A stretch of DNA of 32,000 bases, taken from the NCBI RefSeq assembly GCF_000698785.1, contig NZ_CP007536.1:780001-812000 (forward strand), read 5' to 3'. The notes below the pieces were generated by a model that saw nothing but the letters and a program-made list of their open reading frames with translations, was not told where the DNA came from and did no database searches. Every line of letters begins with the position of its first letter. Within the stretch, counting starts at the first letter, position 1. The position numbers were made by a program, and so were the translations under genes. The stretch is from Nitrososphaera viennensis EN76 (GTDB lineage Archaea; Thermoproteota; Nitrososphaeria; Nitrososphaerales; Nitrososphaeraceae). Of this stretch, positions 1,919 through 28,361 are shown in pieces.

Positions 1919-2371
1919 GTGAATCACCTAAACAAGCTGAAGTCAGACAGGAGGGCAATCAGTCCGATACTGGCAACAATAGTCCTTATAGCCATAACAG
2001 TGGCTGGAGGGCTGCTCGTCTACAACGTCTTTTTTGCAACAGCAGGGACGATAAGCGCCAGAACACAGGTAGAGATAGAGTCGGTCAACATGGTAAAGAC
2101 GACCAGTGGCGCAACGGTCTTTAGCATCACTCTGCAGAACACGGGCAACAAATTCCTCAACTCTGTTACATACACGGTAACAGGAGACACAGGAACACTG
2201 ACTGCCACGCTGAACAACATGCAGCCGGGACAGTCGTTGAGCGACACAAAGACAAACCCGGCGGGATTCTCTGTAACGCCCGGCAAGACGTATCCAGTAT
2301 CAATAACTGCCACTGCAAGCGACGGAAGCACAGCCCAGTATACGTCGTCGGTACTTGCCAGCTCTGGTTGA
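1919..2371 (+). CDS. Archaeal type IV pilin-like protein (class III signal peptide)
   Basis: The N-terminus KSDRRA|ISPILATIVLIAITVAGGLLVY is the archaeal pilin N-terminal pattern: a basic stretch, a small residue, then SP-hydrophobic helix. It is followed by a Thr/Ser-rich, beta-rich domain. GTG start. Confidence 0.8.
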   Translation: MNHLNKLKSDRRAISPILATIVLIAITVAGGLLVYNVFFATAGTISARTQVEIESVNMVKTTSGATVFSITLQNTGNKFLNSVTYTVTGDTGTLTATLNNMQPGQSLSDTKTNPAGFSVTPGKTYPVSITATASDGSTAQYTSSVLASSG

Positions 2372-2416
2372 GCCTACAACAAAGAAGAAGGCTTTCCACT
2401 CCCTATTTTTTTCGCC

Positions 2417-2424
2417 TTTTAAAG
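2417..2424 (+). promoter_or_regulatory. TATA-like box (TTTTAAAG), preceded by a T-run
   Basis: CTATTTTTTTCGCCTTTTAAAG: the oligo-T is a possible terminator of the upstream pilin gene. The box is about 30-37 nt upstream of the 2454 start. Confidence 0.35.
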
Positions 2425-2453
2425 ATTCACCGGCCGATTTTTGTGGGAATTGA

Positions 2454-2984: not shown

Positions 2985-2987
2985 GCA

Positions 2988-5900
2988 ATGACAAATGATG
3001 ATAAACGCAATAACAGTCATTCTCGCCGAAACAAAGGGATCTCGCCAGTCCTTGGCACAATAATCTTTGTGCTTGTTGCAGTGGCAGCAATAGGCACAAT
3101 ATCCTTCATATTCGTGGCCCAAGACAATTACAACACCGCTGTAAAGAAGAGCACGGAATTAGTTGGAAACAAGGGAAAGGAGCAGATATCTGTAGCACAG
3201 CTGGAAGAAGCAAAATTACAGATAGCAAACGATGGTCCTGCAACATCCAGAATCATCGGACTGGTGTCGGCAGACGATTCAACTGGGAACCTCAGTCTGG
3301 AACCTCTCAATCTGGCTTTACCCTCTGCACAGAAACTGGACTACACGATGCCTGTCAGTACTACAGGAGGAGGCCTTGGCAGCGGCAAGATGGGTCTCCT
3401 TACATCTTTGGGAAATATCTTCTGGGTAGACTCTAAACCGCTGCAGAACAAACCCCTTCCAGATTTTGCAATAGCCGTTGCACCGGATTCGCTGACAGTA
3501 GAACAGGGCAAGACTGGTACAGCGTCGATAACTGTGAGTCCCCTGAATAGCTTTTCTGACACTGTATTTCTATCTGCATCTGGCCTTCCTCAGGCCGCAA
3601 GCTATCTAATCAAGCCGTCAAGTGGAAACCCTCCATACGCAAGCACTTTGACGGTGCAGGTAGGCTCGACTACTCCGGTCGGGGTTTACACAATCACAAT
3701 TACAGGCGATGACAAGAATGGCAGAGTGCATTCTGCCACCTTGACTCTTCAGGTCAATGCCGCGTCTAACCAAGATTTCACCATAGCTGTGTCAACAAAG
3801 ACTGTAACTTTGCAGCAGGGCTCGTCTGCTGCAACAAATTCAATTACAGTGTCGCCGGTAAACGGCTATGACAGGACGGTAACGCTGGAAACATCAGGCT
3901 TTCCTGCAGGGGTTACCTACAGCTACAGCCCTCTCAGTGCAAAACCGTCGTTCACAAGTACGCTGACCATCGGTTCAGCAGCAAACACACCGACCGGGAC
4001 GTACGTAATCACGGTGAAAGGAAGCGACGACACCGGCAAGGTACATTCAGATACCTTTACACTCCAAATAACTGCTCAGCCAGACTTCGATTTATCTGTC
4101 AACCCGTCATCATTGAATCTGCAGAGCGGAGGTTCCGGCTCATCCGTGGTATCTGTAACGTCTCTGAACGGTTACTCTGGGCAGGTCAGCCTGTCGTTAT
4201 CAGGACTGCCAAATGGCGCTACTGCATCATTTAGCAAGCCTTCTGGAAGTCCATCTTTTACAAGCGTCCTCGACATCAACGCAGGCACTGCAAACGCGGG
4301 AACATACAACCTCATAGTGACAGGTACTGGAAGCGGAGGCGGCAAAACAAAATCCACCCAGCTGACGCTTACCATCCAAGAAACATCGTTTGACTTTTCG
4401 CTGGCGTTGGGTTCGAGCAGCGTAAACATCCAGCAAGGCGGAAGCAGCTCCAACACTGTTACGATATCACCAATCAACGGCTACAACAAGATCGTAAGCC
4501 TGTCAGTGTCTGGGATTCCATCCGGCGTATCTGCCTCTTTCAATCCCCAAAGTGGTGTCCCTGCATTCACAAGCACAATGTCAATATCCGCATCAACATC
4601 TGCGACACCAGGCTCGTACCCTGTAACAGTGCAGGCGCAGGGACAGGACGGGAAAACACATTCAACAACCTTTACACTGAAAGTGCAGGCAAAATACAAG
4701 CTAACGATATCAGTCCAGACAGCCGGACCGTCCGTCGCACCAACGACTTTCACCTCAGACACATTCAGCACAGGTCTGGACGGGTGGTCATACTGGGGAG
4801 ACAGCGGTTATGCACTGGCCAGAGACACAGGAACTGGTAGCCCTGCCCCCTCGGCAAAGATCAGCGGAGATGCGTTCGCTACTGTGCACGGCATACAGAA
4901 GGTGGTTGACCTATCTTCATGGTCAAAGGCAGGAACCCTCACGTTATCTTTCAATTACAGGGCTGCATCAGATTATGCGGGCAGCACGGTAACCAATGCG
5001 TTTGTCCGCATATACAATGCAAACACAGACCTGATACTTTACGAGGAGACGCTTGTAGCCGGTGGAACGCAGGACACCGGTTGGAAATCCTACAGCAAAG
5101 ACATCACCTGCAGCGTGCTGTCATCGTCTGGAAGCAGCACTAACAAGATCAGGGTCGTCCTGTTTCTGGGAGACGGGTGGAGGGCAAACTGGAACCAGAA
5201 GAACTGGTATGACAACATAAAGCTGGAAAGCTCGACATCAGCTGCAACCTGTGGAGGCACGACCAGCCCGGCTCCGGGAACATACTCCTACGTCGAAGGA
5301 GAGAGTGTGCAGGTAACTGCTCTACCCAACGCAGGATGGAAGTTGTCTCACTGGAGCCTTGACGGAGTAAGCGTCGGGTCCCAGAACCCTGCTTCGGTTA
5401 CCATGAACAAGGACTATGCGCTGGTTGCCGTATTTGCACAGGGTCAGTCAGGCAGCGATTTTGTGGTCTCTGCAAGCCCCTCTTCTTTGAGCATTGCAAA
5501 AGGCTCTTCAGGCTTGACGACTGTTGCAGTAAACTCGATAAACGGCTATTCTACAGGGGTGAGCCTGAGCTTGTCAGGTCTCCCTGTAGGGGCATCCTAC
5601 TCATTCCAGCCATGGTCGTCAAATGCTCCGTTTACCAGTACACTGACGATAAATGCCGGTACAGCAAACCCCGGGACATACACACTTTCCGTCACAGGAA
5701 CAGGTTTGGCTGACGGCAAGATCAGAACAACCACCATTTCTCTTACTGTAACGCCTCAGTTTGATTTCTCACTGTCACTGAATCCGTCTTCTGGGACCGT
5801 GCAGCAGGGAGGATCGGTTCAAACAACCGTAACAACAACCTTGCTGAGTGGTACATCAACTTCAGTGAGCCTCTCTGCAAGTGGAGGACCACTTGGAACA

Positions 5901-8102
5901 TCGTTTACTTTCAGTCCTGCATCCGGAAATCCAACATTTGCCAGTACTCTGACAATCAATATTCCAAGCAACGTTGCTACTGGCACATACCAGGTAACTG
6001 TTGCAGGAAGTGGCGGAGGCGTCTCAAGAACAGCAACGTACCAGCTGACGATAAGCTCACAGACAGCGCAGCCATTCAACTATGCTCTATCCGTCAGTCC
6101 CTCAAGCCTGTCCATTGCCAAAGGTTCCTCTGCGCAGACGACAGTCTCTGTAGACCTGCTCGCAGGATCCTCCGCGCAGGCCGTCGCGCTGTCATCAACC
6201 GGACAGCCTTCCGGCGTCACCGTCTCTTTCAACCCATCGTCAGGAAACCCAACATTCAAAAGCACCATGAGCATAAGCGTGTCCTCCGCAGCTAATGCAG
6301 GTACTTATACTCTGACAATAACCGGGACTTCCGGTGCCCTGGCAAAATCCACAACGTTAACACTGACAATAGTCAACGCAGCCGATTTTGCACTGTCTGC
6401 AACTCCTGGTACTCTCATAGTACATCAAGGCTCAGCTGGTTCAACCACAATCAAGATCGATGCAGTAAATGGATACAGCAACACGGTGTCACTGTCGGCC
6501 ACAGGTCTGCCTTCAGGCGTTACCTGTGCATTCAGTCCATCAAGCGGCAAGCCGACTTTTTCAAGTACGCTAACACTCTCCGCGTCCCAGTCAGCTGCGA
6601 CTGGAACATTCACAGTAACGATCAACGGTGCAGGTGCCGATGGCAAAACAAGGACCACAACTCTGACGCTTACAATACCCAAGCAGACAACCTATCCGCT
6701 TGCAGTAGCTGTCAAGGACCAGTTCAACGCGCCGGTGAAGGGAATCACCGTTACGATAGACTCCTCATCATACACAACCGATACAAGTGGTCAGGTAACA
6801 GTACAGGTCTTACAAGGAACCCACACTATAGCAGTTCCCTCTTCTTACCTCCAGTCGTCAGGCACAAGGTACTTGTTTGACAAGTGGAGCGATGGCGGAG
6901 TAACAGCAAATCCAAGGACCGTTACGGTTAACTCTGCAGTGACTTTTACTGCCATTGAGAAGAAGCAGCATTACCTGACGATGCAGACATCTGCATCATC
7001 AGCTGGTACTGTGTCTCCCTCCAGTGATTGGTATGATTCTGGCAAACAGGTGGCGATTTCAGCATCCGCATCGTCAGGCTACAAATTCGATACATGGTCA
7101 GGCTCCGGTTCAGGCTCGTATTCTGGAACAGCTAACCCTGCCACGATAACGGTAAATGCGCCCATCACAGAAACAGCAAGCTTCCAGAAGGTATACACCG
7201 TCAGCGTGAAAACGCTGGCAACCTATGGAGGTCTTTCGGCATCACCGTTATCTGGCCTGAAGGTGAAGATAGGGACCACCACAGTCCAGACAGATTCAAG
7301 TGGCATGGCAGCTTTTGCGCTCCCTGCCGGCACCTATCAGGTGAGCATTGTTGATACATCCACGACAAAGTCGATAAGCAGCGTTGATGTCAGAGGCTTT
7401 GCGTTCAAGTGGTGGGACAACCTCTCGACTTCAAATCCAAGGACGATCAGTGTGAACGGACCCTCAACACTGGTGGCGTACTACCCAATCACTTGGCAGC
7501 AGTACACATTGAATCCAAATACGTACACTGCAGAGGTTGCTGACCCCTCGAAAACCGACTCCCTTGGAAACCCTGTCCTGAGGTCGGTATCTCTGCCGTA
7601 TGCAAAGTCTGCCAGCAACTGGCTTCTTGGGTGGGAGTGGAGCATGGATGTGAGGACGGACAGCAAGGGAGCATACTTCGGCGCTCATGATTATGCCGCA
7701 TGGGGGTACACCAAGGCCTTTACAACAAAGTGGAACTCAAAGCTGACACCTGCAACTCATTCGTATGCGGTAGACAAACTGGCGATAAGCTATTCCGGCT
7801 ACTTGAATGTGAAAGGCATAACCTCGGATTCAGACCAGGGGCTTTACTTCAGGTACAGGGACACTTACAACAACAAGGGAGACACAAGCCCGTCTGTTGA
7901 CTGGACAAATACAAAATCGTACAACGGGGTGGTTGGCGCGGCCAGAGTGTTTACTCCAAAGCAGGTGATAGTAGGAGACTTGATGGTATCAACATACCAG
8001 TGGGCCAGAGGCTCCAACTTTGACATGAGGTTCAGCAACGGGTATGGGTGGACTACAAACAACATGGTCGCCACGCTTTACTTTACGCCGACAAATCCGT
8101 AG
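2988..8102 (+). CDS. Giant (1704 aa) pilin-anchored adhesin: class III signal peptide plus 8 Ig-like repeats, jelly-roll/CBM-like, InlB-B-repeat-like and CarboxypepD_reg-like domains, and an aromatic-rich C-terminal domain
   Basis: The N-terminus is RRNKG|ISPVLGTIIFVLVAVAAIGTISFIF. There are eight roughly 102-aa repeats of the pattern DF-x-(L/I)S-x-x-P-x-S(L)-x-(I/V)-x-QG-x-S...V-x-S-x-NGY...V-x-LS-x-SGLP-x-G...SF-x-P-x-SG-x-P-x-FTSTLT...GTY...T. GTVSP...GYKFDTWSG type repeats appear around aa 750-815 and 1330-1400. Confidence 0.85.
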   Translation: MTNDDKRNNSHSRRNKGISPVLGTIIFVLVAVAAIGTISFIFVAQDNYNTAVKKSTELVGNKGKEQISVAQLEEAKLQIANDGPATSRIIGLVSADDSTGNLSLEPLNLALPSAQKLDYTMPVSTTGGGLGSGKMGLLTSLGNIFWVDSKPLQNKPLPDFAIAVAPDSLTVEQGKTGTASITVSPLNSFSDTVFLSASGLPQAASYLIKPSSGNPPYASTLTVQVGSTTPVGVYTITITGDDKNGRVHSATLTLQVNAASNQDFTIAVSTKTVTLQQGSSAATNSITVSPVNGYDRTVTLETSGFPAGVTYSYSPLSAKPSFTSTLTIGSAANTPTGTYVITVKGSDDTGKVHSDTFTLQITAQPDFDLSVNPSSLNLQSGGSGSSVVSVTSLNGYSGQVSLSLSGLPNGATASFSKPSGSPSFTSVLDINAGTANAGTYNLIVTGTGSGGGKTKSTQLTLTIQETSFDFSLALGSSSVNIQQGGSSSNTVTISPINGYNKIVSLSVSGIPSGVSASFNPQSGVPAFTSTMSISASTSATPGSYPVTVQAQGQDGKTHSTTFTLKVQAKYKLTISVQTAGPSVAPTTFTSDTFSTGLDGWSYWGDSGYALARDTGTGSPAPSAKISGDAFATVHGIQKVVDLSSWSKAGTLTLSFNYRAASDYAGSTVTNAFVRIYNANTDLILYEETLVAGGTQDTGWKSYSKDITCSVLSSSGSSTNKIRVVLFLGDGWRANWNQKNWYDNIKLESSTSAATCGGTTSPAPGTYSYVEGESVQVTALPNAGWKLSHWSLDGVSVGSQNPASVTMNKDYALVAVFAQGQSGSDFVVSASPSSLSIAKGSSGLTTVAVNSINGYSTGVSLSLSGLPVGASYSFQPWSSNAPFTSTLTINAGTANPGTYTLSVTGTGLADGKIRTTTISLTVTPQFDFSLSLNPSSGTVQQGGSVQTTVTTTLLSGTSTSVSLSASGGPLGTSFTFSPASGNPTFASTLTINIPSNVATGTYQVTVAGSGGGVSRTATYQLTISSQTAQPFNYALSVSPSSLSIAKGSSAQTTVSVDLLAGSSAQAVALSSTGQPSGVTVSFNPSSGNPTFKSTMSISVSSAANAGTYTLTITGTSGALAKSTTLTLTIVNAADFALSATPGTLIVHQGSAGSTTIKIDAVNGYSNTVSLSATGLPSGVTCAFSPSSGKPTFSSTLTLSASQSAATGTFTVTINGAGADGKTRTTTLTLTIPKQTTYPLAVAVKDQFNAPVKGITVTIDSSSYTTDTSGQVTVQVLQGTHTIAVPSSYLQSSGTRYLFDKWSDGGVTANPRTVTVNSAVTFTAIEKKQHYLTMQTSASSAGTVSPSSDWYDSGKQVAISASASSGYKFDTWSGSGSGSYSGTANPATITVNAPITETASFQKVYTVSVKTLATYGGLSASPLSGLKVKIGTTTVQTDSSGMAAFALPAGTYQVSIVDTSTTKSISSVDVRGFAFKWWDNLSTSNPRTISVNGPSTLVAYYPITWQQYTLNPNTYTAEVADPSKTDSLGNPVLRSVSLPYAKSASNWLLGWEWSMDVRTDSKGAYFGAHDYAAWGYTKAFTTKWNSKLTPATHSYAVDKLAISYSGYLNVKGITSDSDQGLYFRYRDTYNNKGDTSPSVDWTNTKSYNGVVGAARVFTPKQVIVGDLMVSTYQWARGSNFDMRFSNGYGWTTNNMVATLYFTPTNP
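3459..4691 (+). repeat. Tandem block 1 of four ~103-codon Ig-like domain repeats inside the adhesin gene
   Basis: aa 158-568. The repeats are diverged at the DNA level and clear at the protein level (PDFAIAVAPDSL..., NQDFTIAVSTKT..., QPDFDLSVNPSS..., TSFDFSLALGSS...). Confidence 0.8.
5451..6680 (+). repeat. Tandem block 2 of four ~102-codon Ig-like domain repeats inside the adhesin gene
   Basis: aa 822-1231 (GSDFVVSASPSS..., QFDFSLSLNPSS..., FNYALSVSPSS..., AADFALSATPGT...). Confidence 0.8.
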
Positions 8103-8188
8103 TATGCAAATAATTATCTTTCGATTTTGGTGCATAACAAGATGCAGTCAGACTAGGGGAAAGAATATTGCAATAGAATTAAGGAGGT

Positions 8189-9226
8189 CTAGACATCCGC
8201 AATGTGAACTTTGAATTTGTCTTTATTCTCTTTTTTAACTTGGACTGACCGTAGGAAAGTTACAGTTTTGTAGTTGCATTTGCCGCCATCAGAGCGACAG
8301 TCAATAGCAGATGCACTAATCACCACTGGTGTGAATGAACCGCCTTTTCTTGCATTGTTGACTGCAGTCGCAATCGTTTTTTCGAAAGCAAATTCAGGAT
8401 TTTCTGCGCTGGTTTTCTCATTTAGGAAGCGTCCAGTCGTTGAACGAGTTGCATCGACGAAGATGATACGTCCCCCTTGTCCTATTCCGTTGTCAATATC
8501 GCCTGCCACTTTATTCCTTTCAATAAATGACTTAATTTCACTTGTAATATCCTGTTCATCATGCTCCGGTCCTCTCGGTTCGTCATTGATGGCTTTCACC
8601 TCACACGGCAGATCATCAATTAGAAAGTCATGTTTCTTATGGAACGAGACTCGTAATCCTGCCTCACTTGCAAGGACCGGGAACTTTACTTCAGCAATGA
8701 CACTCCACAAGCCGGTTGGCAATTTTATGTAGAATTTCTCAAACTCATCATCATAGGGCTTGCCTCCTTTCACCTCAAACCTCTTTCCATAGTGGAGGCT
8801 AACCTTATATTGGCTGATATTACCGAGATCCGCCGACATCTCGCTTACGATTCTCGCCTTTTTCGTATCAAATGTACTCCTGTCTACTTGTGAGCATCTA
8901 TAGTACCAATAGCAAAATCGTAGGAGTTCCAAGATTATGGGCTCAGTTGCATACTCGAAACCGGGCGTCTTCCATTCTCTAATTGTCTCGAGGAAATATG
9001 GTTGGAAAAGTTCATCCATGGGCATTTCGTTCTGCAGCATCTTCCAGCCGTCTACAACTTCCGCAGCTTTTGCTGATTCATAGATAGCTGCGGATATCTT
9101 GATTTTGAAGCCACCGAACACGACTGTGTCAGAGTCGATTATTTGCGGTACTGAATCTTTGTCAGTAACTATACCTGATGTACGAATAGCAAGAAACCTC
9201 GCATCATCGATAAAGTCCACATCCAA
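8189..9226 (-). CDS. Hypothetical protein (345 aa), third gene of the AT-rich minus-strand cassette
   Basis: Long ORF with a TTG start and no family recognised by eye. The possible short D...E-x-K element (FLIDDLPCEVKAI) is not convincing on its own. Confidence 0.55.
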   Translation of the reverse strand: MDVDFIDDARFLAIRTSGIVTDKDSVPQIIDSDTVVFGGFKIKISAAIYESAKAAEVVDGWKMLQNEMPMDELFQPYFLETIREWKTPGFEYATEPIILELLRFCYWYYRCSQVDRSTFDTKKARIVSEMSADLGNISQYKVSLHYGKRFEVKGGKPYDDEFEKFYIKLPTGLWSVIAEVKFPVLASEAGLRVSFHKKHDFLIDDLPCEVKAINDEPRGPEHDEQDITSEIKSFIERNKVAGDIDNGIGQGGRIIFVDATRSTTGRFLNEKTSAENPEFAFEKTIATAVNNARKGGSFTPVVISASAIDCRSDGGKCNYKTVTFLRSVQVKKENKDKFKVHIADV

Positions 9227-9364
9227 ATTTGAGGTTCCCTTTCTAATTTCTGTCTTTTGGCATTTGCTGCGTTCTTTCTTTAATCACCTGTGTAGAAATA
9301 AAGGCTTTGACGCATTCGCCCGCACATATACACGCGAAATTAATGAAAAGCAGATCCTTTCTGG

Positions 9365-10039
9365 CTATATTATAGAGGCTTGATTCCAATTGTCATCGAA
9401 AGCCGATTCGGCATCTACAGATGATACCATTTTTGCAAGATAGCTATTTTTTGAACCAAAGTCTTTCAGTGAATGCCCAACAGACCAGCCTTCACCCCTT
9501 GTTAGAATAAATCTGTCATGTAAACCTGTACCTTTTCTCATCATCAGCTTGTTGCTTAATGTTGCTATTTCTTGCTTGACTTGGTACAACTCCTTAATGT
9601 TATCGGTTAAGAGTAGAATATCGATGTCGCCCTTTACTTTGGCTAACAGCTTGATAGTATCCACGGACACATAAGGGTCGCAAATTTTGACGTAAGTATC
9701 AAGCTGATTCTGGAGAATGCCAATAAGAGCGCTTTCGCCCTTCTGCCTTTCTCCAGCCCTAACAAACACATGGTCTTGGTATGACCCTTCTTCAATTACG
9801 AAAGACGTAACATTATTCCCTCCAATGGTGGACGACTTGACTTTTCCGACAATTGGCTCTGATAGTGTAACCGGCGATTTGCTCATGAGTACCCCTTCAT
9901 CAATGCTTCTACGTTGTGCGCCGGTAGTAATATTCTCAATTATAGTAACTCGAAGGGGTCTTTCATCATGGAAAGCACGCACAATCTTGATAATATCGCC
10001 CTTTCTAAGATCTATTGAACCATTAAACCAACATTCCAT
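9365..10039 (-). CDS. Two-domain protein: N-terminal beta-rich (OB/SH3-like?) region plus C-terminal MIT_C-type PLD-like domain (HDR variant of the HKD motif)
   Basis: The C-terminal half has ICDPYVSVDTIKLL (aa 119-132), IDILLLTD, and LHDRFILTRGEGWSVGHSLKDFGSKNS (aa 173-198). This matches my recollection of the MITD1 C-terminal PLD-like fold pattern: x-DPYI ... HDR-x-I-x-T-x-x-GW ... G-x-x-L-D/K-x-F. Confidence 0.55.
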   Translation of the reverse strand: MECWFNGSIDLRKGDIIKIVRAFHDERPLRVTIIENITTGAQRRSIDEGVLMSKSPVTLSEPIVGKVKSSTIGGNNVTSFVIEEGSYQDHVFVRAGERQKGESALIGILQNQLDTYVKICDPYVSVDTIKLLAKVKGDIDILLLTDNIKELYQVKQEIATLSNKLMMRKGTGLHDRFILTRGEGWSVGHSLKDFGSKNSYLAKMVSSVDAESAFDDNWNQASII

Positions 10040-10126
10040 AATAAGCGATTAATGTTGCAGAATTTTAGTTATTCGTCTGCTTGATATTGCACCTCGGCAC
10101 GCTTGCCAGCATTCTTGGAAAGTCGG

Positions 10127-14066: not shown

Positions 14067-14122
14067 GGAACTTGCATTTTTGAAGAAAGGGTAAATAACA
14101 CAGAATGACCTGACCGTATGTA

Positions 14123-19596: not shown

Positions 19597-19619
19597 ATTG
19601 GGATCACCATGGTTTACTG

Positions 19620-20033: not shown

Positions 20034-20301
20034 TGCTTGATTTGCCGCCTCTTCTTAACAACTTCTTTTCTCTTTTAGCTTCCTCTGACCGGGCCTCCTC
20101 GATTAGCTCCTTGGACGTCTTGCCCTTGAAGAGCTCCTTGAGAGAACCTTTCTCCATCAGAGGGTCCGGAACCGGCTTCAGAAGCACACCTTCCTCCGTG
20201 TCCACGGCAAGGGCCTTTTTCCCTATCTTGTGCTTGTCTCTTAACTCCTTTGGTATTGTAGCCTGACCCTTCTTCGTTACTGTAACTACAGTCTCTACCA
20301 T
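20023..20301 (-). CDS. vapB: AbrB/SpoVT-fold antitoxin VapB
   Basis: VTVTKKGQATIPKELRDKHKI is the swapped-hairpin AbrB/MazE-type motif, followed by a charged C-terminal tail. Confidence 0.8.
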   Translation of the reverse strand: MVETVVTVTKKGQATIPKELRDKHKIGKKALAVDTEEGVLLKPVPDPLMEKGSLKELFKGKTSKELIEEARSEEAKREKKLLRRGGKSSSEQ

Positions 20302-20323
20302 TACCAGTAATATAATAGTTCAT

Positions 20324-20348
20324 GTAATACATAAAGATTGTGTATTAC
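20324..20348. promoter_or_regulatory. Perfect 8-bp inverted repeat (GTAATACA-N9-TGTATTAC) in the vapBC promoter region; candidate VapB operator
   Basis: Read directly from the sequence. It lies 23-47 nt upstream of the vapB start, next to an A/T-rich TATA-like stretch (TTATATTA on the minus strand). Confidence 0.45.
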
Positions 20349-20406
20349 TAATGCAATCCCTTCATCGTGATAAACGACGCAACCTTTTTCGTATCCAAAC
20401 AAGTCA

Positions 20407-20853
20407 ATGCTATCCCAAATGAAGGGTGTTTACGTCCTCCTGATGCATATTGGCAGGCCTGCTATCGCAAGAACCGGTTCCCTCGGTAGACTGCACTTTG
20501 AGAAAGGAGTCTACGCTTATGTCGGTTCAGCCCTCAATGGTCTAGAGCCAAGGATATCCAGACACCTGTCAAAAAGGAAGGAGAACATGCACTGGCACAT
20601 AGACTATCTTATAGGCTCTCCTTACGCGTCCACAGAATATGTGGTAATGGGAGACAAACAAGAGAGTCGAATGTAAAGTCAGCAAAGTGATTGCGTCTAA
20701 GCCATTCTCTAGCGAAGTACCTGCTTTTGGTTCAAGCGACTGTAGCTGCGACTCCATCTCTATAGACTTGATTCATCGATCGACGAGTCGCTACAAGATA
20801 TGAAAAAGATATTTTCTTCGCGGGAATTAACTCCTATTGTGTTGCACGTCTGA
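20407..20853 (+). pseudogene. DUF123 / Uri-superfamily (GIY-YIG-like) endonuclease gene disrupted by two compensating frameshifts
   Basis: Frame 1 encodes GVYVLLM...KGVYAYVGSALNGLEPRISRHL...HWHIDYL up to the stop at 20674-20676. Frame 2 (20648-20755) encodes ECKVSKVIA...PAFGSSDCSCDS. Frame 1 resumes at 20755 with HLYRLD... to the stop at 20851-20853. Joined together, these pieces reproduce my recollection of the DUF123 order: HWHIDYL ... EC ... FGSSDC-x-C-x-SHL. Confidence 0.55.
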
Positions 20854-20899: not shown

Positions 20900-21601
20900 A
20901 TGCCTGAAGTGATAAGGTCGCTATGGTTTGAAGAGATAGGCTTCATTCATGAAAAGTTCTTTGACACGCCCATGGGAAAATTGACGGTAAGGCAGGTTGT
21001 CATAGTCTTTGTCTTTGGCATCTCTGCGTGGGCGGCATTTAACAGTGTAGGTGATGACATGCTAAAGGTTGCCATAACCAGCCTTCTTGTAATACTTGGC
21101 CTTGCATTTGCATTCCAGAGAATAAAGACCTTGACGCCGGAGCAGTCCATGATGTTTGCGCTATTTGCCAAAAGAATCGATGTTGGATCTGCAAGGAAGG
21201 AGAGCGCGGTACCGCCTTTTTCCACGCCGTCTGCGAGCGCAGGACAAGGTGGTACAGAAACCTTTGACATTTCTGTGCTGGATGCCGGCGATGACACCCA
21301 CGATACTCAGATACAGAAGCTGGTGGTCCTTGTTAGAGATCCCACGACCGGTAGCCCTTTGCCCAACAAGGGATGCGAGATACTGGTTGACGGTAAGAGT
21401 GCGGGAAAAAGATTAACAGACGAGGAGGGATTTCTCACCATCCCTTTTGTACCCGAGAAGCCGGGCATTAACACGATTGAAGTAAAACCAGAAGGGTATG
21501 CGGCAATTGTAAAGAGCATAACAGTCGACGTGCAGTTGCCGCAGCCGCGACAAGGTGGGCGGTTGCATGCTGCCAAGACCGGGCAGGGGATACAGAATTG
21601 A
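20900..21601 (+). CDS. VirB3/PrgI-like two-TM protein fused to a C-terminal Ig/CarboxypepD_reg-like domain
   Basis: EKFFDTPMGKLTVRQVVIVFVFGISAWAAF plus a second TM resembles the PrgI/VirB3 pattern (short cytoplasmic N-terminus, G-x-L-T-x-R-Q, two TM helices). The C-terminal part (VVLVRDPTTGSPLPNKGCEILVDGKSAGKRLTDEEGFLTIPF) looks like a beta-sandwich. Its stop overlaps the VirB4-like start (TTGA). Confidence 0.5.
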   Translation: MPEVIRSLWFEEIGFIHEKFFDTPMGKLTVRQVVIVFVFGISAWAAFNSVGDDMLKVAITSLLVILGLAFAFQRIKTLTPEQSMMFALFAKRIDVGSARKESAVPPFSTPSASAGQGGTETFDISVLDAGDDTHDTQIQKLVVLVRDPTTGSPLPNKGCEILVDGKSAGKRLTDEEGFLTIPFVPEKPGINTIEVKPEGYAAIVKSITVDVQLPQPRQGGRLHAAKTGQGIQN

Positions 21602-23481
21602 ACAATCCCGCCGGCTTTCTGACAGAATTATCGTGCAAAGACCGTTTCAAGTACATCTATGAAGTGCAGCCACTGAACTTTGTAATGCTGCCCAATTCGA
21701 AGCAGCAGGAACTTGTCGAGAGGTTCAGGCAGTTTCTCAATTCATTGAACAGCCGAATCCGACTTGTAGCCAAGAAGAGCAGCAAGGCAATTCCTATTGG
21801 CGACGGCTCATACCAAATGCAGTTCTACCGGTATTTTGTTGAAAGTGAGGAAAACATCGATGACAGGCTGTCAGGTTTCAGCCTGCTGTACAACAGAATT
21901 TCAGAAATTCCATCATATACAGTCGTGAGAAAGATGAGCGACAGGATAATACTCCCTGAAGGAAAGATGATCAGGACATTTACCCTGTACAAGCTGTCGA
22001 GCACTCTGGTCGAGGGTTTTGTTAGCGAGACGTACGGCATTGCCGACGAGGTTTCGATAGTAATTGTCCCAGTAATTCAGGAGCAGGCTACAGCAAAGAT
22101 GAACAAATACACGAAGTTCCTCAGCGGAATGATCCTTGCAGACCAGCAAAAGCGCAGAACATCACCTTACGAACTTGTCCAGAGGCATACGATGGCGCAG
22201 CAGACTCTGGAGCTCTTGACAAACGGCCAGACAAGATTGTTCAAGATAATAGTAAACTTTGTTGTCGGCGGAAAAGACAGAAAGGATCTAAACAGGAATG
22301 TGAAACTGCTAAAGAACACGCTGCAGGCCAGGCTGCTCTATCTCGACAGTCCGAGGTTTGTTCAAGGGCACCTGCTTGCCGGGAATCTGGGAAAGAGGCT
22401 TGTTGTAGATACGACTACTGCTGCTACGCTCTTTCCATTCGTGTCTGCCGACATCGTCGAATTGCCGGATGGCGTATTCCTAGGGGCAAACAAGCTCACC
22501 GGTGCTCCAGTCATTTACGACGTGTTCATGCATGACAACTATAACATATCGACTCTGGGCACAAGCGGCAGCGGCAAGTCGTTTTCAACAAAGATAATTG
22601 TGAGCAGGATGCTCCAGCGAAATCCTGATGCCGCCCTCTTTGTCTTTGACCCAGAAAACGAGTACATAAAGCTCGGAAACGTATTGGAAGCCAATGTTGT
22701 TAAATTTGATCCGCACTCAGATATGGGTCTGGATCCTCTGAAGATCTATTCTTCGATAGACGCTTCGGAGATAATCGCATCGATAACCAGCCTGCCGCAA
22801 GACTACCACGCCACGCTTCGCACCATTGCAAATAAAGCGGACGACATACAAGCGCTCTACAACAGCTGTCCTAGGAGCATGCAAGGCTATCTGAAAGATC
22901 TGGTTGATGATGGCACTCTGGCTCATGTTTTCAGAGGAAAACCGGTAGAGTTCACAGGCAGGATGATATTCTCGATGAAAGACATTGAAAGCAGCATCGA
23001 AAAGAACCTACTTTCCCTGCTGCTCTTTGGAAAGGTATGGAACATGATAAACGACGAATCACATTTGCCCAGGGCAGTACAGAAGATAGTCGTCGTAGAC
23101 GAAGCATGGCTTTACTTGGCAATTCCTGCCGCAGCCAGATTTCTGGAGAGGACCGCAAGGCTTGGAAGGAAGAGAAATGTCTGCTTCATAATCAACACCC
23201 AGAGGGCGGCAGATGTCCTTGGAGAGTCTGACGGAAAGCCGGGACTTGGAAGGTCGATAATTGAAAATAGCGCAACCAAGGTTCTGCTCAGGCAGGACGA
23301 GCTGTCTGCAGATGTTGTTGCAAGGGCTTTTGGCCTGTCTGAAAGGGAAAGGGAGCATCTTGTTGAGCTGGATTCAGGAAATGGGTTTTTGATAGCGCAG
23401 AATGTGCATGTTCCAATAAAGTTCATAGCATCGGAAGAGGAAGAGCAGATATTCACAACCAGGCCGTCGGACCAAGTATGA
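21598..23481 (+). CDS. VirB4/TrbE/CedB-like conjugation ATPase
   Basis: Walker A is GTSGSGKSFSTK (aa 321-332). Walker B is KIVVVDEAWLYL. The downstream RKRNVCFIINTQRAADV matches the conserved T-Q motif region of VirB4/TraC-type ATPases. The N-terminal half is non-ATPase, as in VirB4. Confidence 0.75.
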   Translation: MNNPAGFLTELSCKDRFKYIYEVQPLNFVMLPNSKQQELVERFRQFLNSLNSRIRLVAKKSSKAIPIGDGSYQMQFYRYFVESEENIDDRLSGFSLLYNRISEIPSYTVVRKMSDRIILPEGKMIRTFTLYKLSSTLVEGFVSETYGIADEVSIVIVPVIQEQATAKMNKYTKFLSGMILADQQKRRTSPYELVQRHTMAQQTLELLTNGQTRLFKIIVNFVVGGKDRKDLNRNVKLLKNTLQARLLYLDSPRFVQGHLLAGNLGKRLVVDTTTAATLFPFVSADIVELPDGVFLGANKLTGAPVIYDVFMHDNYNISTLGTSGSGKSFSTKIIVSRMLQRNPDAALFVFDPENEYIKLGNVLEANVVKFDPHSDMGLDPLKIYSSIDASEIIASITSLPQDYHATLRTIANKADDIQALYNSCPRSMQGYLKDLVDDGTLAHVFRGKPVEFTGRMIFSMKDIESSIEKNLLSLLLFGKVWNMINDESHLPRAVQKIVVVDEAWLYLAIPAAARFLERTARLGRKRNVCFIINTQRAADVLGESDGKPGLGRSIIENSATKVLLRQDELSADVVARAFGLSEREREHLVELDSGNGFLIAQNVHVPIKFIASEEEEQIFTTRPSDQV

Positions 23482-23667: not shown

Positions 23668-24063
23668 TTGTTTGTTGACGGTGCAATAACAGGTCTACTC
23701 TCGGCTCCGGCACTTGCCGTGTGGACGATGATTTCCCTCGCAGCTTCGTTGTTCCTGAGTCACAGGCTCACCTTTGTCAGGGGAGGCTCTGAGCAGGAAC
23801 AGGCAAAGGGACAGAGGATCATAGTTGGAGGAATACTTGGAGGTGTCGTGATGTACCTTGCACCCTACCTTGCCGCATGGCTGACAGGCATTGACTACAG
23901 AAATCCTCCTGCCAATCTACCGCCCCAGCTGGTATCGATGGTAGGAAACCTTCTGACTATGATCCAGTACATAGGAGTCGCGGTGATAATTGGTGGGATA
24001 ACGTGGGGCGCCATAGAACTCACTAGGAATAGACACACCTCAACAGGCGAACGACGAAAGTAG
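23668..24063 (+). CDS. Small hydrophobic protein (131 aa; signal-like segment plus two long hydrophobic helices); candidate VirB2/TrbC/CedA1-type conjugative pilin
   Basis: The call rests on topology only: ALAVWTMISLAASLFL, then IIVGGILGGVVMYLAPYLAAWL and VGNLLTMIQYIGVAVIIGGITWGAIEL, with a basic C-terminus. TTG start, uncertain. Confidence 0.4.
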   Translation: MFVDGAITGLLSAPALAVWTMISLAASLFLSHRLTFVRGGSEQEQAKGQRIIVGGILGGVVMYLAPYLAAWLTGIDYRNPPANLPPQLVSMVGNLLTMIQYIGVAVIIGGITWGAIELTRNRHTSTGERRK

Positions 24064-24079
24064 ACCAGGTCCTCCCAGA

Positions 24080-24598
24080 TTGGACATATCATCAGCTCCT
24101 CTCAGAGTGTTCCGAACATTCATGGCCATCTCTCTGGGCGCGCCCATCGTATTCTTTATTTATGATAGTTCCACTTCAGGTGTCCTTTTCTCATTCACAA
24201 GCTTCCTTTTTCTGTCGATATGGGCATCCGGGTTTTCACTCGATGTGTGGACCACCTACAAGTTCTACGCTGCAGACAGGGGGAACTTTTCAGTCAACGA
24301 GACCAACGCAGTATTTTCAAGGCTTGTAGAGCAATTTGGCTTTAGGAAGGGCTTGGCGGTGCAGCTGGTTCTTGTAGAAATTCCTGCAGCCATGGTGCTT
24401 GCTGTGCTACTGTATCCTGTATATCACACGTTTACTGAATATGGCTCAACTGGTATTGTGGCTGTTTTGAATCTGTCAGTTTCGTCGTTATCTTACCTGC
24501 CGGCTGCCCTGTGCCTGTTTGGAGTGGTACACATGATCGATGCCTTTGTGAACCTGAATGTGGAACGTAAAGAAAATCAAAGCAGGGTAAAACGATAG
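24080..24598 (+). CDS. Integral membrane protein (4-5 TM), unknown function
   Basis: Hydrophobic ORF in the T4SS-like block. The start is uncertain (TTG at 24080 or ATG at 24119). Confidence 0.55.
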   Translation: MDISSAPLRVFRTFMAISLGAPIVFFIYDSSTSGVLFSFTSFLFLSIWASGFSLDVWTTYKFYAADRGNFSVNETNAVFSRLVEQFGFRKGLAVQLVLVEIPAAMVLAVLLYPVYHTFTEYGSTGIVAVLNLSVSSLSYLPAALCLFGVVHMIDAFVNLNVERKENQSRVKR

Positions 24599-24647: not shown

Positions 24648-25652
24648 ATGGATGGTTTTATGGTTATGATCGAGATCAGGCCATTCCAAATAAGCAGCTC
24701 CCAAAAGTATCCAAGTGATGGCTATATGGAACTATTGCAGAATTTGCATTCTAGTGGGAGAATCGGCAGGGTACTGTTGCAATGCGACAAATCTCAAAAC
24801 TACCCAGACAAGATATCCATCAGGTACTTCATAGACGTCGATGACGGCGGCAAAAGACAGGTTATAAGCAGCCTGTCAAAAATGCCAGTACAGGTTCTCT
24901 CCGGCTCCCCTCGACCAAGACGGTATGGCTATTTTGCAGAATTGAAGCTGAAAAGACCTTATCCTCTTCCCATGGTAGACCATTCTTCTAAAGCAGAAAA
25001 TAATTCAAACAACCCACTTTCCTCTGCAGCAGGAAACATAGCTGAATCACTGTATGGCGTGCCGTCAATGCTGGAGATAGTTTTCAGAGCAGACAGTCGC
25101 GCAGCTGTAAGAATATGGAACTACCTTGAAAAGTTCGAAAAGAAGTTGCCGTCTTCAGACATACTCTCGCAGCTGGCCAGTATGGGTGCAGGGTTTGCCA
25201 GCGAAGCAGCACGTTTTGGCTCGACCAAGAAAGGCGAATCCATGGGTCTGGCCAAACAAGACAAGGAGCTATCACTTTTTGAAAAGAACTTGCTTGAAGC
25301 CATGAAAATGAAGGCCAGATCGCACGCGTTATTCCTCTCAAAGATAACAGTATTCAGCATGAGCAGTGCCCACCTTGAAAACATAGTGAAGCAGTTTCCA
25401 AAGTGGCACAACGGATTTTCTGCAAAAGTAAAGAAGGTTGAACAGGCAGAAGGGCTTCTTCCGGGAGCTGCGCCGCCAGCGCTGTCACGATCCAAGGCAT
25501 CCCTTCTGCTTTCATTCCGCGAATACGGGCTTGCAATCCTCAGCATGGAAGAGATGCTGTCTATAATGGCAGTTCACCCATCACAACAGTCAGCGCATTT
25601 TGAGCAGGGCGTGTCAAGGCCTGGACCTGATTCCTCCATGCCGTCCAAGTGA
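24648..25652 (+). CDS. Hypothetical soluble protein (334 aa) immediately upstream of the coupling ATPase
   Basis: Long ORF ending 6 nt before the next start. No motif recognised. Confidence 0.6.
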   Translation: MDGFMVMIEIRPFQISSSQKYPSDGYMELLQNLHSSGRIGRVLLQCDKSQNYPDKISIRYFIDVDDGGKRQVISSLSKMPVQVLSGSPRPRRYGYFAELKLKRPYPLPMVDHSSKAENNSNNPLSSAAGNIAESLYGVPSMLEIVFRADSRAAVRIWNYLEKFEKKLPSSDILSQLASMGAGFASEAARFGSTKKGESMGLAKQDKELSLFEKNLLEAMKMKARSHALFLSKITVFSMSSAHLENIVKQFPKWHNGFSAKVKKVEQAEGLLPGAAPPALSRSKASLLLSFREYGLAILSMEEMLSIMAVHPSQQSAHFEQGVSRPGPDSSMPSK

Positions 25653-25658
25653 TGCCGA

Positions 25659-28361
25659 ATGGGATTATTCGAACGCATCAGAAAGAAGCCGGACGTAGAG
25701 AAGGAAGGCAAAATTCATGAAGAGTTTGACATTTCAAAATATCTTGAACCTAACACAGAACCGATATACCTGCTGGGCGTTGACAGTAACACCGGCGAGA
25801 GGAAGGGCCTGTACAAGAGCGACAGGGGACACACGCTCATAATAGGAAGGACGCAGTACGGCAAGACCACTCTCATAGAAACGCTGATACTTGAGCATGT
25901 ACAGGAAAACGAGACATTTGTCTACATTGACCCGTCCGGCGATTCTGTCAACAAAATATTGGCGTTGATACCTGACGAGAAGAGAAAGAACACGATACTT
26001 ATCGACCCTATGACAATACACACGCACGGCAGGGTGGTCAAGATTGATTTTCTGGAATATTCAAATAGCCTGTCACGTCTGAAAGTTGCGCAGGGCTTCA
26101 TTGACGCTGTGAAAAAGCTCTCAGGCGGGATGTGGGGGCCTCTGCTTGAAAGGATAATGAGAAACACCATCCTGCTTCTCATAGACCAGGAGAAAGGTTC
26201 CACCGACATAACTGACTGCTATTACGTGATAAACGATGTCGAGTACAGAGAGCGACTAATGAGAAACTGCTCAAACAAAGACGTCGTCAACTTTTTTGTC
26301 AACGACTTTGGCAGGATAAGGCCAGAGTCGCTTGAGCCAATCCTGACAAGGCTCAACACCATCCTTGTCGACCCTCTGGTAAAAGAGATGTTCCGGACCA
26401 AGAGGAAAGATGGCGCGGTAGTCAAGACTCTGGACCTGAGAGACGCCATAGACGGCGGCAAATTCGTCCTGGTCAACCTTTCAAAGGCAAGGCTTGGCGA
26501 CATGTCTGCGTTTATCGGCAGCCTGCTCTTGGACAAGATATTCCAGACTGCGATAAGCAGGGCAGACGAGCGAGTGAAGGAGAAAAGGAAGGCATGTTAC
26601 CTGTATGTAGATGAAGCCCACACTTTTGTAACAGACGCAGTGATAGACATATTGCGCGAGGTAGCAAAGTACCGCCTCTATTTCACTCTGGTTACCCAGT
26701 ATCCGTCCGGGTTTACCGAAGAGATAAAGAAAGCAGTATTTGGGAACTGCTCTACAATCATAACGTTCTCTGTAGGTCCTGACACTGCAAAGGAGATAGC
26801 ACCTTTCTTTGTTCCTTATGACACACAGACGATAATGCTCCTTCCGAGGTACGAGTTCATGGTAAGCACCAAGATGAAGGGGATACCGCTAAAACCATTT
26901 TCACTTTCGACGCATCACACGCAGATCAAGGATTTGGAATTGATCAAAAGGAGCGAAGAATGCATGGCAGAAAGCCTGCGTATATACGGACAGGAGGTAA
27001 GTTCGGACCCTCTGCAAGACAAGGCTGAGAGCAATGAGGTTATTGTTATCGCTCCGAAGAACGCTGCCTTTCCAAGGCCGCCATTCTTCACAACGCCAAT
27101 AAAGTGGTTTATCCAGACAAGGCTCTTTTTTGAGAGTAATGGAATGACTATGAAAGCCCTCTTTGAACAGGCAGTATCATCGCCCCATCACCACAAACCC
27201 TACGATTCAGGATTTCAGAAAGTAAAGGCAGTCTTGCACGAGATGGTAAGAGAAGGGCTGGTGCAGACTATTCAGGTAACTGCAGACGATCAATCAGATA
27301 AAAGGAGGTTCGCATTTATGCTGACGGAGTCAGGGCTGAAGCCTTTCTACGAAATACCAAAGGGTGCAAGAGTTGGTGGAAACATACATCTCAACTGGAT
27401 GGACCTCTTCCTCCACGCTTTCTGGAGGATGGGATGGTACTGCATTGCAGACAACGGGCGTCTCAGCGAAGGGCATTCGGACATCTATGCATTCTCGCCA
27501 AAACTGTCAGAGAACGGTTCAAAGCACGACCCGGACGAATGGGAAATCCCGCCGGCCTGGGCTGTGGAGTTTGAGGTCTACCCAGAACGACATCCAAACA
27601 GGACAATCGAGAACTATCTCCGAAATGCGTCCAGCAGGATAAAGACTGTCTTCATAACAGACAGCGAAGAGAGGAAAAAGAGGATACTGCAGGCATTGAA
27701 AGAGCACAGCATTTCTGCCTATGTGCCGGTTTTGCTTGTAAACAGGGCTGCAACTCATTCAGATGTAGAAAAAGTGGTCCATGCATTAACCGCAATCCAA
27801 GAACCTGTATTACTGGAACAAGCAATAGCCGAGGCAGAATTGCCCGATGTGAAAGAGCATGGAAATGAGAGCGTAAGGGAGGTAGAAATTATAGAAAAAC
27901 AAAATCTGACAGATGGAGGCCAGCAAAGAACAACATCGAGTGCGGCACACGTGGCTCCTCCAGTAAACATCAAAACAGAATCTGAAGGAAGGGATATTGA
28001 AGAGCAAGATTCAGGGGATGCAGGCAATGCAAGTATCCCTGGCGAAAATGAAGAAAAGACGCCTGATGAGGGCGGAGAGGAAGAAGACACCGCCACGACA
28101 GTTATGGAGATGCTGTATCAGGAACTTGCAGACGACGAATCCCTGGTCAGGATTCTTCGCGCAGTAAAGGAAAGTCCGGGTCTGAAATCGTCAGACATTG
28201 TAGCCAGACTGGGAATACCCCGGATGTCGTTTATGCGCAAGTCAGCAAAGCTGAAAGAACTGGGGTTGATATTTACAAAGGAAAGGATGCCAGGTTATGC
28301 GATAACTGACAGAGGGATGACGATTCTTGACAAGATCGACGAAAGGGATGATGGCAAGTAA
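25659..28361 (+). CDS. VirD4/TraG/FtsK-HerA-type coupling ATPase fused to wHTH, PD-(D/E)xK-like module, acidic linker and C-terminal wHTH
   Basis: Walker A is GRTQYGKTT (aa 63-71). Walker B is CYLYVDEAHTF (aa 313-323). The middle wHTH-like region spans aa ~480-560. The nuclease-like region has H-L-N-W...SDIYAF...WAVEFEV (aa ~575-690). An acidic low-complexity stretch spans aa ~730-815. The C-terminal MarR/TrmB-like wHTH is ILRAVKESPGLKSSDIVARLGIPRMSFMRKSAKLKELGLI...GYAITDRG. Confidence 0.7.
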   Translation: MGLFERIRKKPDVEKEGKIHEEFDISKYLEPNTEPIYLLGVDSNTGERKGLYKSDRGHTLIIGRTQYGKTTLIETLILEHVQENETFVYIDPSGDSVNKILALIPDEKRKNTILIDPMTIHTHGRVVKIDFLEYSNSLSRLKVAQGFIDAVKKLSGGMWGPLLERIMRNTILLLIDQEKGSTDITDCYYVINDVEYRERLMRNCSNKDVVNFFVNDFGRIRPESLEPILTRLNTILVDPLVKEMFRTKRKDGAVVKTLDLRDAIDGGKFVLVNLSKARLGDMSAFIGSLLLDKIFQTAISRADERVKEKRKACYLYVDEAHTFVTDAVIDILREVAKYRLYFTLVTQYPSGFTEEIKKAVFGNCSTIITFSVGPDTAKEIAPFFVPYDTQTIMLLPRYEFMVSTKMKGIPLKPFSLSTHHTQIKDLELIKRSEECMAESLRIYGQEVSSDPLQDKAESNEVIVIAPKNAAFPRPPFFTTPIKWFIQTRLFFESNGMTMKALFEQAVSSPHHHKPYDSGFQKVKAVLHEMVREGLVQTIQVTADDQSDKRRFAFMLTESGLKPFYEIPKGARVGGNIHLNWMDLFLHAFWRMGWYCIADNGRLSEGHSDIYAFSPKLSENGSKHDPDEWEIPPAWAVEFEVYPERHPNRTIENYLRNASSRIKTVFITDSEERKKRILQALKEHSISAYVPVLLVNRAATHSDVEKVVHALTAIQEPVLLEQAIAEAELPDVKEHGNESVREVEIIEKQNLTDGGQQRTTSSAAHVAPPVNIKTESEGRDIEEQDSGDAGNASIPGENEEKTPDEGGEEEDTATTVMEMLYQELADDESLVRILRAVKESPGLKSSDIVARLGIPRMSFMRKSAKLKELGLIFTKERMPGYAITDRGMTILDKIDERDDGK

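Follow-up and report, generated by a model that had tools for sequence, protein, structure and literature searches.

We analysed a 32,000-nucleotide stretch of the Nitrososphaera viennensis EN76 chromosome (NZ_CP007536.1, positions 780,001 to 812,000; hereafter the window), which is almost certainly the mating-machinery, or conjugation, region of one integrated conjugative element (ICE), NitVie-E3. The window carries a complete archaeal type IV pilus gene set, namely three class-III pilins, a FlaI-type ATPase and a TadC/UpsF-like platform, with the peptidase encoded elsewhere in the ICE, together with a type IV secretion system (T4SS) set made of VirB6-like, VirB3/PrgI-like, VirB4, VirB2-like pilin and VirD4-like proteins. 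The main features are listed below in window coordinates; related loci compared in this work carry L numbers, and TM stands for transmembrane.

55-732, + strand: putative TFIIB homologue, C-terminal 225 amino acids (the gene begins upstream of the window, record 779776-780732; published arCOG01981)
716-1825, + strand: ParB-like protein (ParB_N 40 bits; TIGR00180; published arCOG01875), overlapping the end of the TFIIB gene
1919-2371, + strand: UpsA-like type IV pilin of 150 amino acids with a class III signal peptide (TIGR02537 32.6 bits against a cut-off of 20)
2454-2984, + strand: second pilin, 176 amino acids (sub-threshold Pilin_N, BasA and UpsB matches; hydrophobic segment at amino acids 28-54; published arCOG11238)
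2988-8102, + strand: pilin-fused surface protein and candidate adhesin, 1704 amino acids (TIGR02537 23 bits against a cut-off of 20; Flg_new_2 65 bits)
12474-14066, + strand: FlaI-type pilus assembly ATPase of the T2SSE/VirB11 superfamily (T2SSE 116 bits; FlaI 321 and BasE 317 bits)
14730-16880, + strand: TadC/FlaJ-type polytopic platform, UpsF-like (T2SSF 31 bits, over the cut-off; 12 hydrophobic segments)
17008-18837, + strand: candidate VirB6/TrbL-like channel protein (six hydrophobic segments; published arCOG07844)
20900-21601, + strand: VirB3/PrgI-like two-TM protein of 233 amino acids with a C-terminal beta domain (TM hairpin at amino acids 28-68; the stop overlaps the VirB4 start)
21598-23481, + strand: VirB4-family ATPase (P-loop_TraG, AAA_10 and DUF87; CD1110-type VirB4 model 152 bits)
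23668-24063, + strand: VirB2-like conjugative pilin (PF18895 T4SS_pilin 34.9 bits against a cut-off of 26.6; three hydrophobic segments)
24080-24598, + strand: three-TM membrane protein, always directly after the VirB2-like pilin (no family match)
24648-25652, + strand: soluble transfer-module protein of 334 amino acids (homologues in Bathyarchaeia loci and in L095 and L096)
25659-28361, + strand: VirD4/TraG-type coupling ATPase, 900 amino acids (TrwB_AAD_bind 23.3 bits against a cut-off of 20.5; SXT_TraD 46 bits; MarR_2)
28612-28754, no strand: palindrome array, candidate protein-binding site, with 8 exact TGGTACCA copies in 143 bp

The identity of the element was established from coordinates. 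All 27 gene ends in the window equal the NZ_CP007536.1 coordinates of Appendix S1 in the published description (Krupovic et al. 2019, PMC6563490) minus 780,000, and the called gene starts agree likewise in all cases except five; the entire window is therefore internal to the published ICE. Table S2 of the same paper gives limits of 744,889-820,479 (75.6 kb, intergenic) and the att repeats AAGGTGCGGGGGGTGCGAT and AAAGTGCGGGGGGTGGGAT. In the downstream flank we found the attR repeat AAAGTGCGGGGGGTGGGAT at window-equivalent 40461-40479 (about 8.5 kb past the window end), a tyrosine integrase gene (Phage_integrase) at about 39117-40385 and a prepilin peptidase gene (Peptidase_A24 and Arc_PepC_II) at 36805-37545, all three lying 4.8-8.5 kb beyond the window end. 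NitVie-E3 itself thus encodes both a prepilin peptidase and a tyrosine integrase, and the pilus and secretion gene sets both lie inside the att-bounded limits, as had been expected of the two modules in an earlier reading of this DNA (the original prediction). A chromosomal location of the pilus genes outside the element, which that reading had kept in view, was rejected: they sit within it, at a distance of 35 kb from attL and of 32-38 kb from attR. Over the 20.4 kb compared, a second assembly, the 2.52-Mb chromosome CP103305.1, matches the window at 100% identity. By a count back from the position of its VirB4 gene, the Logan contig ERR1877478_9342 (L001, 70,303 bp) would begin about 50 bp or less from the attL coordinate of Table S2; such an assembly break near attL might have arisen from integrated and excised forms occurring side by side.

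Each pilus and secretion gene named in the original prediction is present where it had been placed, with a strength of support that differs from gene to gene. The description of the two modules as co-oriented was right for the core genes, which are all on the + strand, and wrong for the minus-strand blocks at 8189-12391 and 18856-20301 that stand between them. No prepilin peptidase is encoded inside the window, as had been noted, the element's copy lying past its end. Scans with Pfam and NCBIfam likewise bore out the lack of a relaxase, since no relaxase family was found among the window proteins, and the 2019 paper found none in the whole element; the same paper reports relaxase candidates as absent from thaumarchaeal ICEs and from Sulfolobus conjugative plasmids alike (PMC6563490).

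The architecture as such is not new. Krupovic et al. (2019; PMC6563490) mapped NitVie-E3, annotated its genes one by one, and counted VirB4, VirD4, VirB6, VirB3, TadC, FlaI, prepilin peptidase and pilins among the conserved components of thaumarchaeal ICEs, with VirB4/TrbE and VirD4/TraG homologues on most of these elements and a TFIIB homologue in every one, usually right upstream of ParB. Their Appendix S1 labels the 1704-amino-acid protein as pilin family, 12477-14066 as FlaI, 14730-16880 as TadC, 17011-18837 as VirB6/TrbL, 21598-23481 as HerA-type helicase, 23668-24063 as “hypothetical” and 25659-28361 as TraG/TraD/VirD4; the published annotations also include arCOG02488 and, further downstream, the prepilin peptidase and an integrase of XerC/D type. 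VirB2-, VirB4-, VirB6- and VirD4-like genes had been reported on thaumarchaeal ICEs in an earlier Nitrosocaldus paper (PMC5797428). The original prediction had suggested possible novelty, to be abandoned if the same architecture had been described for this lineage; comparison with published archaeal ICE maps returned that architecture and the very same element. The pairing of pilus and T4SS on NitVie-E3 is thus real but already known, and adds nothing to the 2019 description. What we add to that description is the VirB2-like assignment of 23668-24063, the fusion evidence for the VirB3-like protein, the recognition of the minus-strand blocks as insertions and the match to the UpsF model.

The closest relative of the region is found in Ca. 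Nitrososphaera gargensis Ga9.2 (N. gargensis), where a platform copy with 93% identity lies at CP002408.1 1,546,350-1,568,503, inside the published NitGar-E3. The gene order is as here (ParB, pilin, pilin, adhesin, FlaI, TadC, VirB6-like, 246-amino-acid protein, DUF123, VirB3-like, VirB4), with 68-96% amino acid identity and 83-90% nucleotide identity over the colinear block. Synonymous divergence (dS) between the two elements is 0.32-0.61 and the ratio of nonsynonymous to synonymous divergence (dN/dS) 0.06-0.23, values that are similar in pilus and secretion genes. The shared order, the similar dS and the low dN/dS therefore indicate that the block was inherited as a unit, with both halves under purifying selection. 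NitGar-E3 differs in having another gene between the adhesin and FlaI genes and an acetyltransferase in the place of VapC; its sequence diverges past VirB4, and no VirD4 gene occurs within the 22 kb examined. The metagenome contig L086 is near-identical to the NitGar-E3 block.

Linkage between the two modules extends beyond this pair of elements. Around more distant platform relatives (41-48% identity), VirB6-like, VirB2-like pilin, partner membrane protein, VirD4, VirB4 or ParB genes lie within 10 kb in five of six independent contexts, drawn from metagenomes or metagenome-assembled genomes; on the strength of these neighbourhoods, we consider that the co-occurrence of pilus and T4SS is not a matter of chance. 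In a scan of genome contigs, VirB4 alone as query returned no relative, and a profile of the VirB4-clade alignment retrieved 74 loci from species-representative genomes. A VirB3-like gene stands beside VirB4 in most of the archaeal loci and in nearly all those of Bathyarchaeia, and prepilin peptidases occur in eight Bathyarchaeia-type VirB4 loci. A compact co-oriented cluster running from FlaI and TadC to VirB2-like pilin, VirB3-like and VirB4 genes was found on a Bathyarchaeota contig (L027), and VirB3-like, VirB4 and FlaI genes stand back to back on a Desulfurococcales contig (L029). In Bathyarchaeia and Desulfurococcales as well, therefore, this pilus clade is tied to the T4SS.

The three pilins each show a basic stretch followed by a single N-terminal hydrophobic segment (RRAISPILATIVLIAITV, RRGSSEVLGAVLVAVITM and RRNKGISPVLGTIIFVLVAV), and the class III signal peptide model TIGR02537 scores over its cut-off in two of them, the first and the third. 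The first pilin, with a dN/dS of 0.08 relative to N. gargensis, aligns end to end with the UpsA model at 59 bits (cut-off 130), and UpsB reaches 20 bits (cut-off 70), scores that denote resemblance to Ups pilins at most and not membership. The third is the N-terminus of the 1704-amino-acid protein, which continues with eight immunoglobulin-like (Ig-like) repeats of about 95 amino acids arranged in two blocks (amino acids 154-557 and 818-1221), B-repeat domains and, at the C-terminus, a domain of about 220 amino acids rich in Tyr, Trp and Asn. It is 91% identical to a 1710-amino-acid N. gargensis protein (dN/dS 0.12), and homologues adjoin pilus genes in L088, L092 and L094.

Among PDB sequences, the pilus ATPase matches 2OAP at 237 bits and FlaI at 174 bits; it also matches the VirB11 and TrbB models at 87-92 bits. 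In the metagenomic relative L094, the FlaI-type ATPase gene (7419-10004) encodes 861 amino acids with a LAGLIDADG domain mark, which suggests an intein within that ATPase. Tested against NCBIfam models, the platform scores 540 bits on UpsF (NF046075, an equivalog; cut-off 400), compared with 274 on BasF and 34 on ArlJ. Within the platform clade linked to ICEs, UpsF is the best model for each of the 15 members. The L027 copy scores 371 bits, slightly under the cut-off, and 74 remoter platform relatives all score lower on this model than the ICE clade does.

Support for the secretion genes is of several kinds. The VirB6-like candidate has no direct Pfam match; it resembles (E 4e-39) a 764-amino-acid L093 protein that bears a weak TrbL_3 mark. 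The VirB3/PrgI-like protein has a weak PrgI match (E 0.03) and is found fused over its full length to the VirB4 N-terminus in at least ten homologues of 829-859 amino acids, including Hadarchaeales (proteins P0045, P0060-P0065, P0067, P0069 and P0070). Bacterial VirB3 shows the same pattern of fusion to VirB4, but is without the C-terminal beta domain of the 233-amino-acid protein. In L095 the VirB4 gene is split into two open reading frames (5864-7804, assembly FWWM01000182.1), perhaps as a pseudogene, through a frameshift or by an error of assembly. The VirB2-like pilin, which has no match among PDB sequences, is conserved together with its three-TM partner in L027, L088, L092, L095 and L096.

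At the head of the region, the reading frame at 55-732 is conserved and overlaps the ParB gene, whose ParB_N domain was confirmed. The name TFIIB is that of the published arCOG01981, and the protein is 91% identical to its L086 homologue, which precedes ParB there as well.

The last gene of the transfer module has unusual features. The VirD4-like homologues bear PF02534/PF12696 and the P-loop domain belongs to the TraG/VirD4 family, but the protein, unlike bacterial coupling proteins, has no TM segments. Its C-terminal extension of about 450 amino acids (amino acids 430-900) comprises, in AlphaFold models searched with Foldseek, a winged helix, an alpha/beta domain and a MarR-like winged helix. 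The alpha/beta middle domain (amino acids 570-735, window 27366-27863, AF2 pLDDT 83) has the invariant residues H577, D598, D608, E637, E639, H645 and R648, retained even in homologues that are 24-31% identical. Its modelled strand order and D...ExE pattern recall those of restriction-endonuclease-like domains; BamHI, for instance, has a D...ExE variant of the PD-(D/E)XK motif. Foldseek found nothing significant for the middle domain in the PDB (best E 0.27), with BsaWI, FokI, AgeI and MUS81 at TM scores of 0.40-0.48, and recovered the winged helix-turn-helix domains alone. The middle domain might stand in for the missing relaxase.

Behind the VirD4-like gene, the palindrome array lies in a 748-bp gene-free gap and is made of three tandem doublets and two singles. 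The eight TGGTACCA copies compare with 0.31 expected in the window, and none occurs there outside the array. The related element L095 has seven copies at the same place; its whole spacer is 90% identical throughout, and no extra constraint on the motifs is therefore demonstrated. The motif is absent from the relative L096. An oriT-like transfer origin, a ParB centromere and a set of iterons are all possible identities of the array.

Taken as a whole, the explanation that we consider very probable is that the window is the mating region of NitVie-E3, with the following mechanism of pilus assembly and transfer. The TFIIB-ParB head would switch on or organise the region. The ICE peptidase would mature the three pilins, and the FlaI-type ATPase and the UpsF-like platform would assemble a type IV pilus carrying the 1704-amino-acid adhesin, as tip or as decoration. 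This adhesin-bearing pilus would find and hold recipient cells (mating aggregation), making or stabilising the contact between donor and recipient. The VirB2-like pilin, the VirB6-like channel, the VirB3-like protein and VirB4 would form the transfer conduit of a single-membrane cell, to which the VirD4-like ATPase would deliver DNA via its C-terminal DNA-binding extension, in a process operating without a classical relaxase. For the specific role of the pilus in mating aggregation and mate-finding, we put the chances at about even.

One alternative is that the pilus module is cargo benefiting the host, for surface attachment or soil biofilm, and takes no part in transfer. ICEs bear much adaptive cargo, the pilus operon tolerates insertions, the adhesin is made of generic Ig-like and B-repeat domains, and many related VirB4 loci have no pilus genes nearby. 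Yet linkage of this pilus clade to the T4SS recurs in Nitrososphaeria, Bathyarchaeia and Desulfurococcales, sometimes gene to gene; the pilus genes stand in the backbone, between the TFIIB-ParB head and VirB6, and not in the variable slots described below; and dS is similar in both modules. We therefore regard the cargo explanation as unlikely, though to be taken seriously. It is also conceivable that there is a single hybrid machine, in which the T4SS uses the FlaI-type ATPase as its VirB11 and the conduit is built in part from the class-III pilins. FlaI and VirB11 do belong to one superfamily, as the 87-92 bits on the VirB11 and TrbB models recall, and a VirB4 gene lies next to a FlaI gene in both L029 and NitNCS1-E3. 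This is nonetheless hard to reconcile with a full pilus set that includes its own ATPase, TadC-type platform, three class-III pilins and dedicated peptidase, with the presence of a separate VirB2-like pilin and partner membrane protein, and with an ATPase that scores far higher on FlaI/BasE than on VirB11 models; we hold it to be highly improbable.

The machinery might, finally, be a domesticated DNA importer serving the host in the manner of Ced/Ted, the element being an immobilised remnant. The absence of a relaxase and the imperfect att repeats would fit, as would the fact that Ced/Ted are VirB2/VirB4/VirB6 importers working with aggregation pili. Several observations speak against it: VirB4 reaches 152 bits on a conjugative VirB4 model but 15 on CedB (cut-off 700), the element has attR, an intact integrase and a coupling ATPase of VirD4 type, near-identical modules occur in the ICE of another species, and the nearest plasmid relatives are Sulfolobus conjugative plasmids. 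Such an importer is, to our mind, the remotest of these possibilities.

The interpretation of the window as the mating region of a mobile element, with a pilus serving transfer, also has observations to contend with. The att repeats are imperfect, and attL, 35 kb upstream of the window, is taken from the published coordinate in Table S2. TFIIB is not recognised by Pfam in the window part of the protein, nor in the 289-amino-acid L086 homologue. The sixth context of the pilus clade, L090, which ends at a contig edge, shows no T4SS gene. The many VirB4 loci of Nitrosopumilus and Nitrosarchaeum have no FlaI or TadC gene within 10 kb; the pilus is therefore a frequent, not an obligatory, companion of this type of T4SS. 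We found no characterised UpsF from Sulfolobales: there are 172 relatives of the platform at E<=1e-30, and twenty cluster look-ups name none from this order. We know of no experiment showing transfer of any thaumarchaeal ICE, nor a pilus made from these genes, and nothing was found in the literature on the expression of these genes in N. viennensis.

Known systems help to situate the pairing. Conjugative elements that combine a T4SS with an adhesin-bearing type IV pilus exist in bacteria, as in the thin pilus of IncI1 (R64) and the type IVb pilus of PAPI-1-type ICEs, and bacterial type IVb systems feature PilV adhesins and a shufflon. The window contains no match to a PilV-like protein, a shufflon recombinase or a shufflon repeat system, and the adhesin matches Ig-like and B-repeat domains alone; no sequence relationship was detected, and the resemblance to IncI would be functional and not one of homology. 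The IncI-like reading of the original prediction, a thin adhesive pilus aiding a T4SS, is a reasonable analogy. The Ups pilus and Ced system of Sulfolobales would be a nearer one within archaea. It offers an archaeal precedent for DNA exchange aided by an aggregation pilus: in Sulfolobales, Ups pili bring cells together so that DNA can be exchanged through Ced (PMC9905601, PMC3892339). Ced/Ted are VirB2/VirB4/VirB6-based importers that work with aggregation pili, and ups clusters are reported in the literature from Sulfolobales alone. In both cases a cell-aggregating type IV pilus would stand beside a VirB2/VirB4/VirB6-type DNA conduit. The Ups and Ced genes, however, are chromosomal, UV-induced and placed in separate loci, and serve DNA import, whereas the genes described here are ICE-borne; UpsX of Sulfolobales, moreover, is cytoplasmic, not an adhesin, and hence no counterpart of the 1704-amino-acid protein.

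The match to the UpsF model, together with the role of Ups pili in DNA exchange, is therefore an interesting lead for the role of the pilus. The Ups link comes from one curated profile and stays a lead. Membership of the Ced/Ted system itself was rejected, since VirB4 scores with conjugative models (152 bits on the CD1110-type) and not with CedB (15 bits, cut-off 700) or CedD (26 bits, cut-off 600).

Among 72,556 plasmids, the closest VirB4 proteins are those of the Sulfolobus conjugative plasmids pNOB8, pKEF9, pING1 and pHVE14 (28-29% identity over 96% of the length), which likewise have ParB, winged-helix regulators and an integrase and for which no relaxase family is typed. None of the 72,556 plasmids has a homologue of the platform protein, and the part of pNOB8 that we examined yielded no pilus genes. 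The T4SS also resembles Gram-positive-type systems: of the curated VirB4 models the CD1110-type scores best, PrgI matches weakly, VirB3 shows a pattern of fusion to VirB4, and such a layout suits a single-membrane envelope. It differs from them in its coupling protein, which is without TM segments and has winged helices, and we found neither a relaxase nor a peptidoglycan hydrolase nor a VirB8-like protein.

Conjugation in archaea outside Sulfolobales is not known to have been demonstrated experimentally. N. viennensis, an ammonia oxidiser, is in cultivation, which places NitVie-E3 among the few thaumarchaeal ICEs that could be put to the test at the bench, and it could offer a route to genetic tools for this group. 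The value of the present analysis lies in the details, namely how backbone and cargo divide, how widely among taxa the two modules are linked, the resemblance of the platform to Ups in profile searches, and a coupling protein with an extension and a palindrome array next to its gene. A bolder combination of these details would make the ICE a self-contained mating kit, with both an Ups-type aggregation pilus and a coupling ATPase replacing the relaxase, whose extension would bind and cut the eight TGGTACCA palindromes; we consider this conjunction quite improbable. If the pilus were truly Ups-type, the pairing of Ups with Ced in Sulfolobales would go back to an older pair of pilus and conduit carried by an ICE, of which it would be a domesticated copy that has been split up.

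The remaining features of the window are as follows; no tRNA and no Rfam family was found anywhere in the window.

8189-12391, - strand: three-gene cargo insertion of about 4.3 kb (345, 224 and 754 amino acids; GC 0.41-0.43 against about 0.475 for the window)
14291-14650, + strand: small open reading frame, 119 amino acids, one hydrophobic segment (in a segment of about 590 bp found in N. viennensis alone; no family match)
18856-19596, - strand: conserved 246-amino-acid protein (68% identical N. gargensis homologue at the same place; also in L095)
19620-20301, - strand: toxin-antitoxin pair of VapC (PIN) and VapB (AbrB/MazE-type) (PIN 60 bits; MazE_antitoxin 26 bits)
20407-20676, + strand: DUF123 (GIY-YIG/Uri-type) small nuclease-like protein (DUF123 61 bits; published arCOG00463; conserved in N. 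gargensis)
29109-31008, + strand: small conserved backbone open reading frames of 102, 145, 115 and 172 amino acids (no family assignment)

Comparison across loci points to the two minus-strand blocks as variable cargo slots. The slot between the adhesin and FlaI genes is a 78-bp gap in L086, holds one unrelated minus-strand gene in N. gargensis and three genes here. Of these three, the 224-amino-acid protein gave the sole PADLOC match (candidate system PDC-S05) and the 754-amino-acid protein a sub-threshold HATPase_c_3 (GHKL-ATPase) match, so that a defence role is possible for the block. Its edges show no target-site duplication and no terminal inverted repeats, and a PHROGs scan returned no match for it. 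The slot between VirB6 and VirB3 (18856-20676) holds VapBC here, AbiEi/AbiEii in L095 (2212-4844), which is another Nitrososphaera genome, and an acetyltransferase with a VapB-like remnant in N. gargensis; the 246-amino-acid protein, which adjoins the variable genes and is conserved in all three, matches GRAM/Vps36 below threshold and nothing else. The gap between the ATPase and platform genes (14067-14729), which houses the 119-amino-acid reading frame, measures 645 bp here against 57 bp in L085 and L086. Downstream of the palindrome array, the four small backbone reading frames at 29109-31008 keep the same order in L095 and L096.

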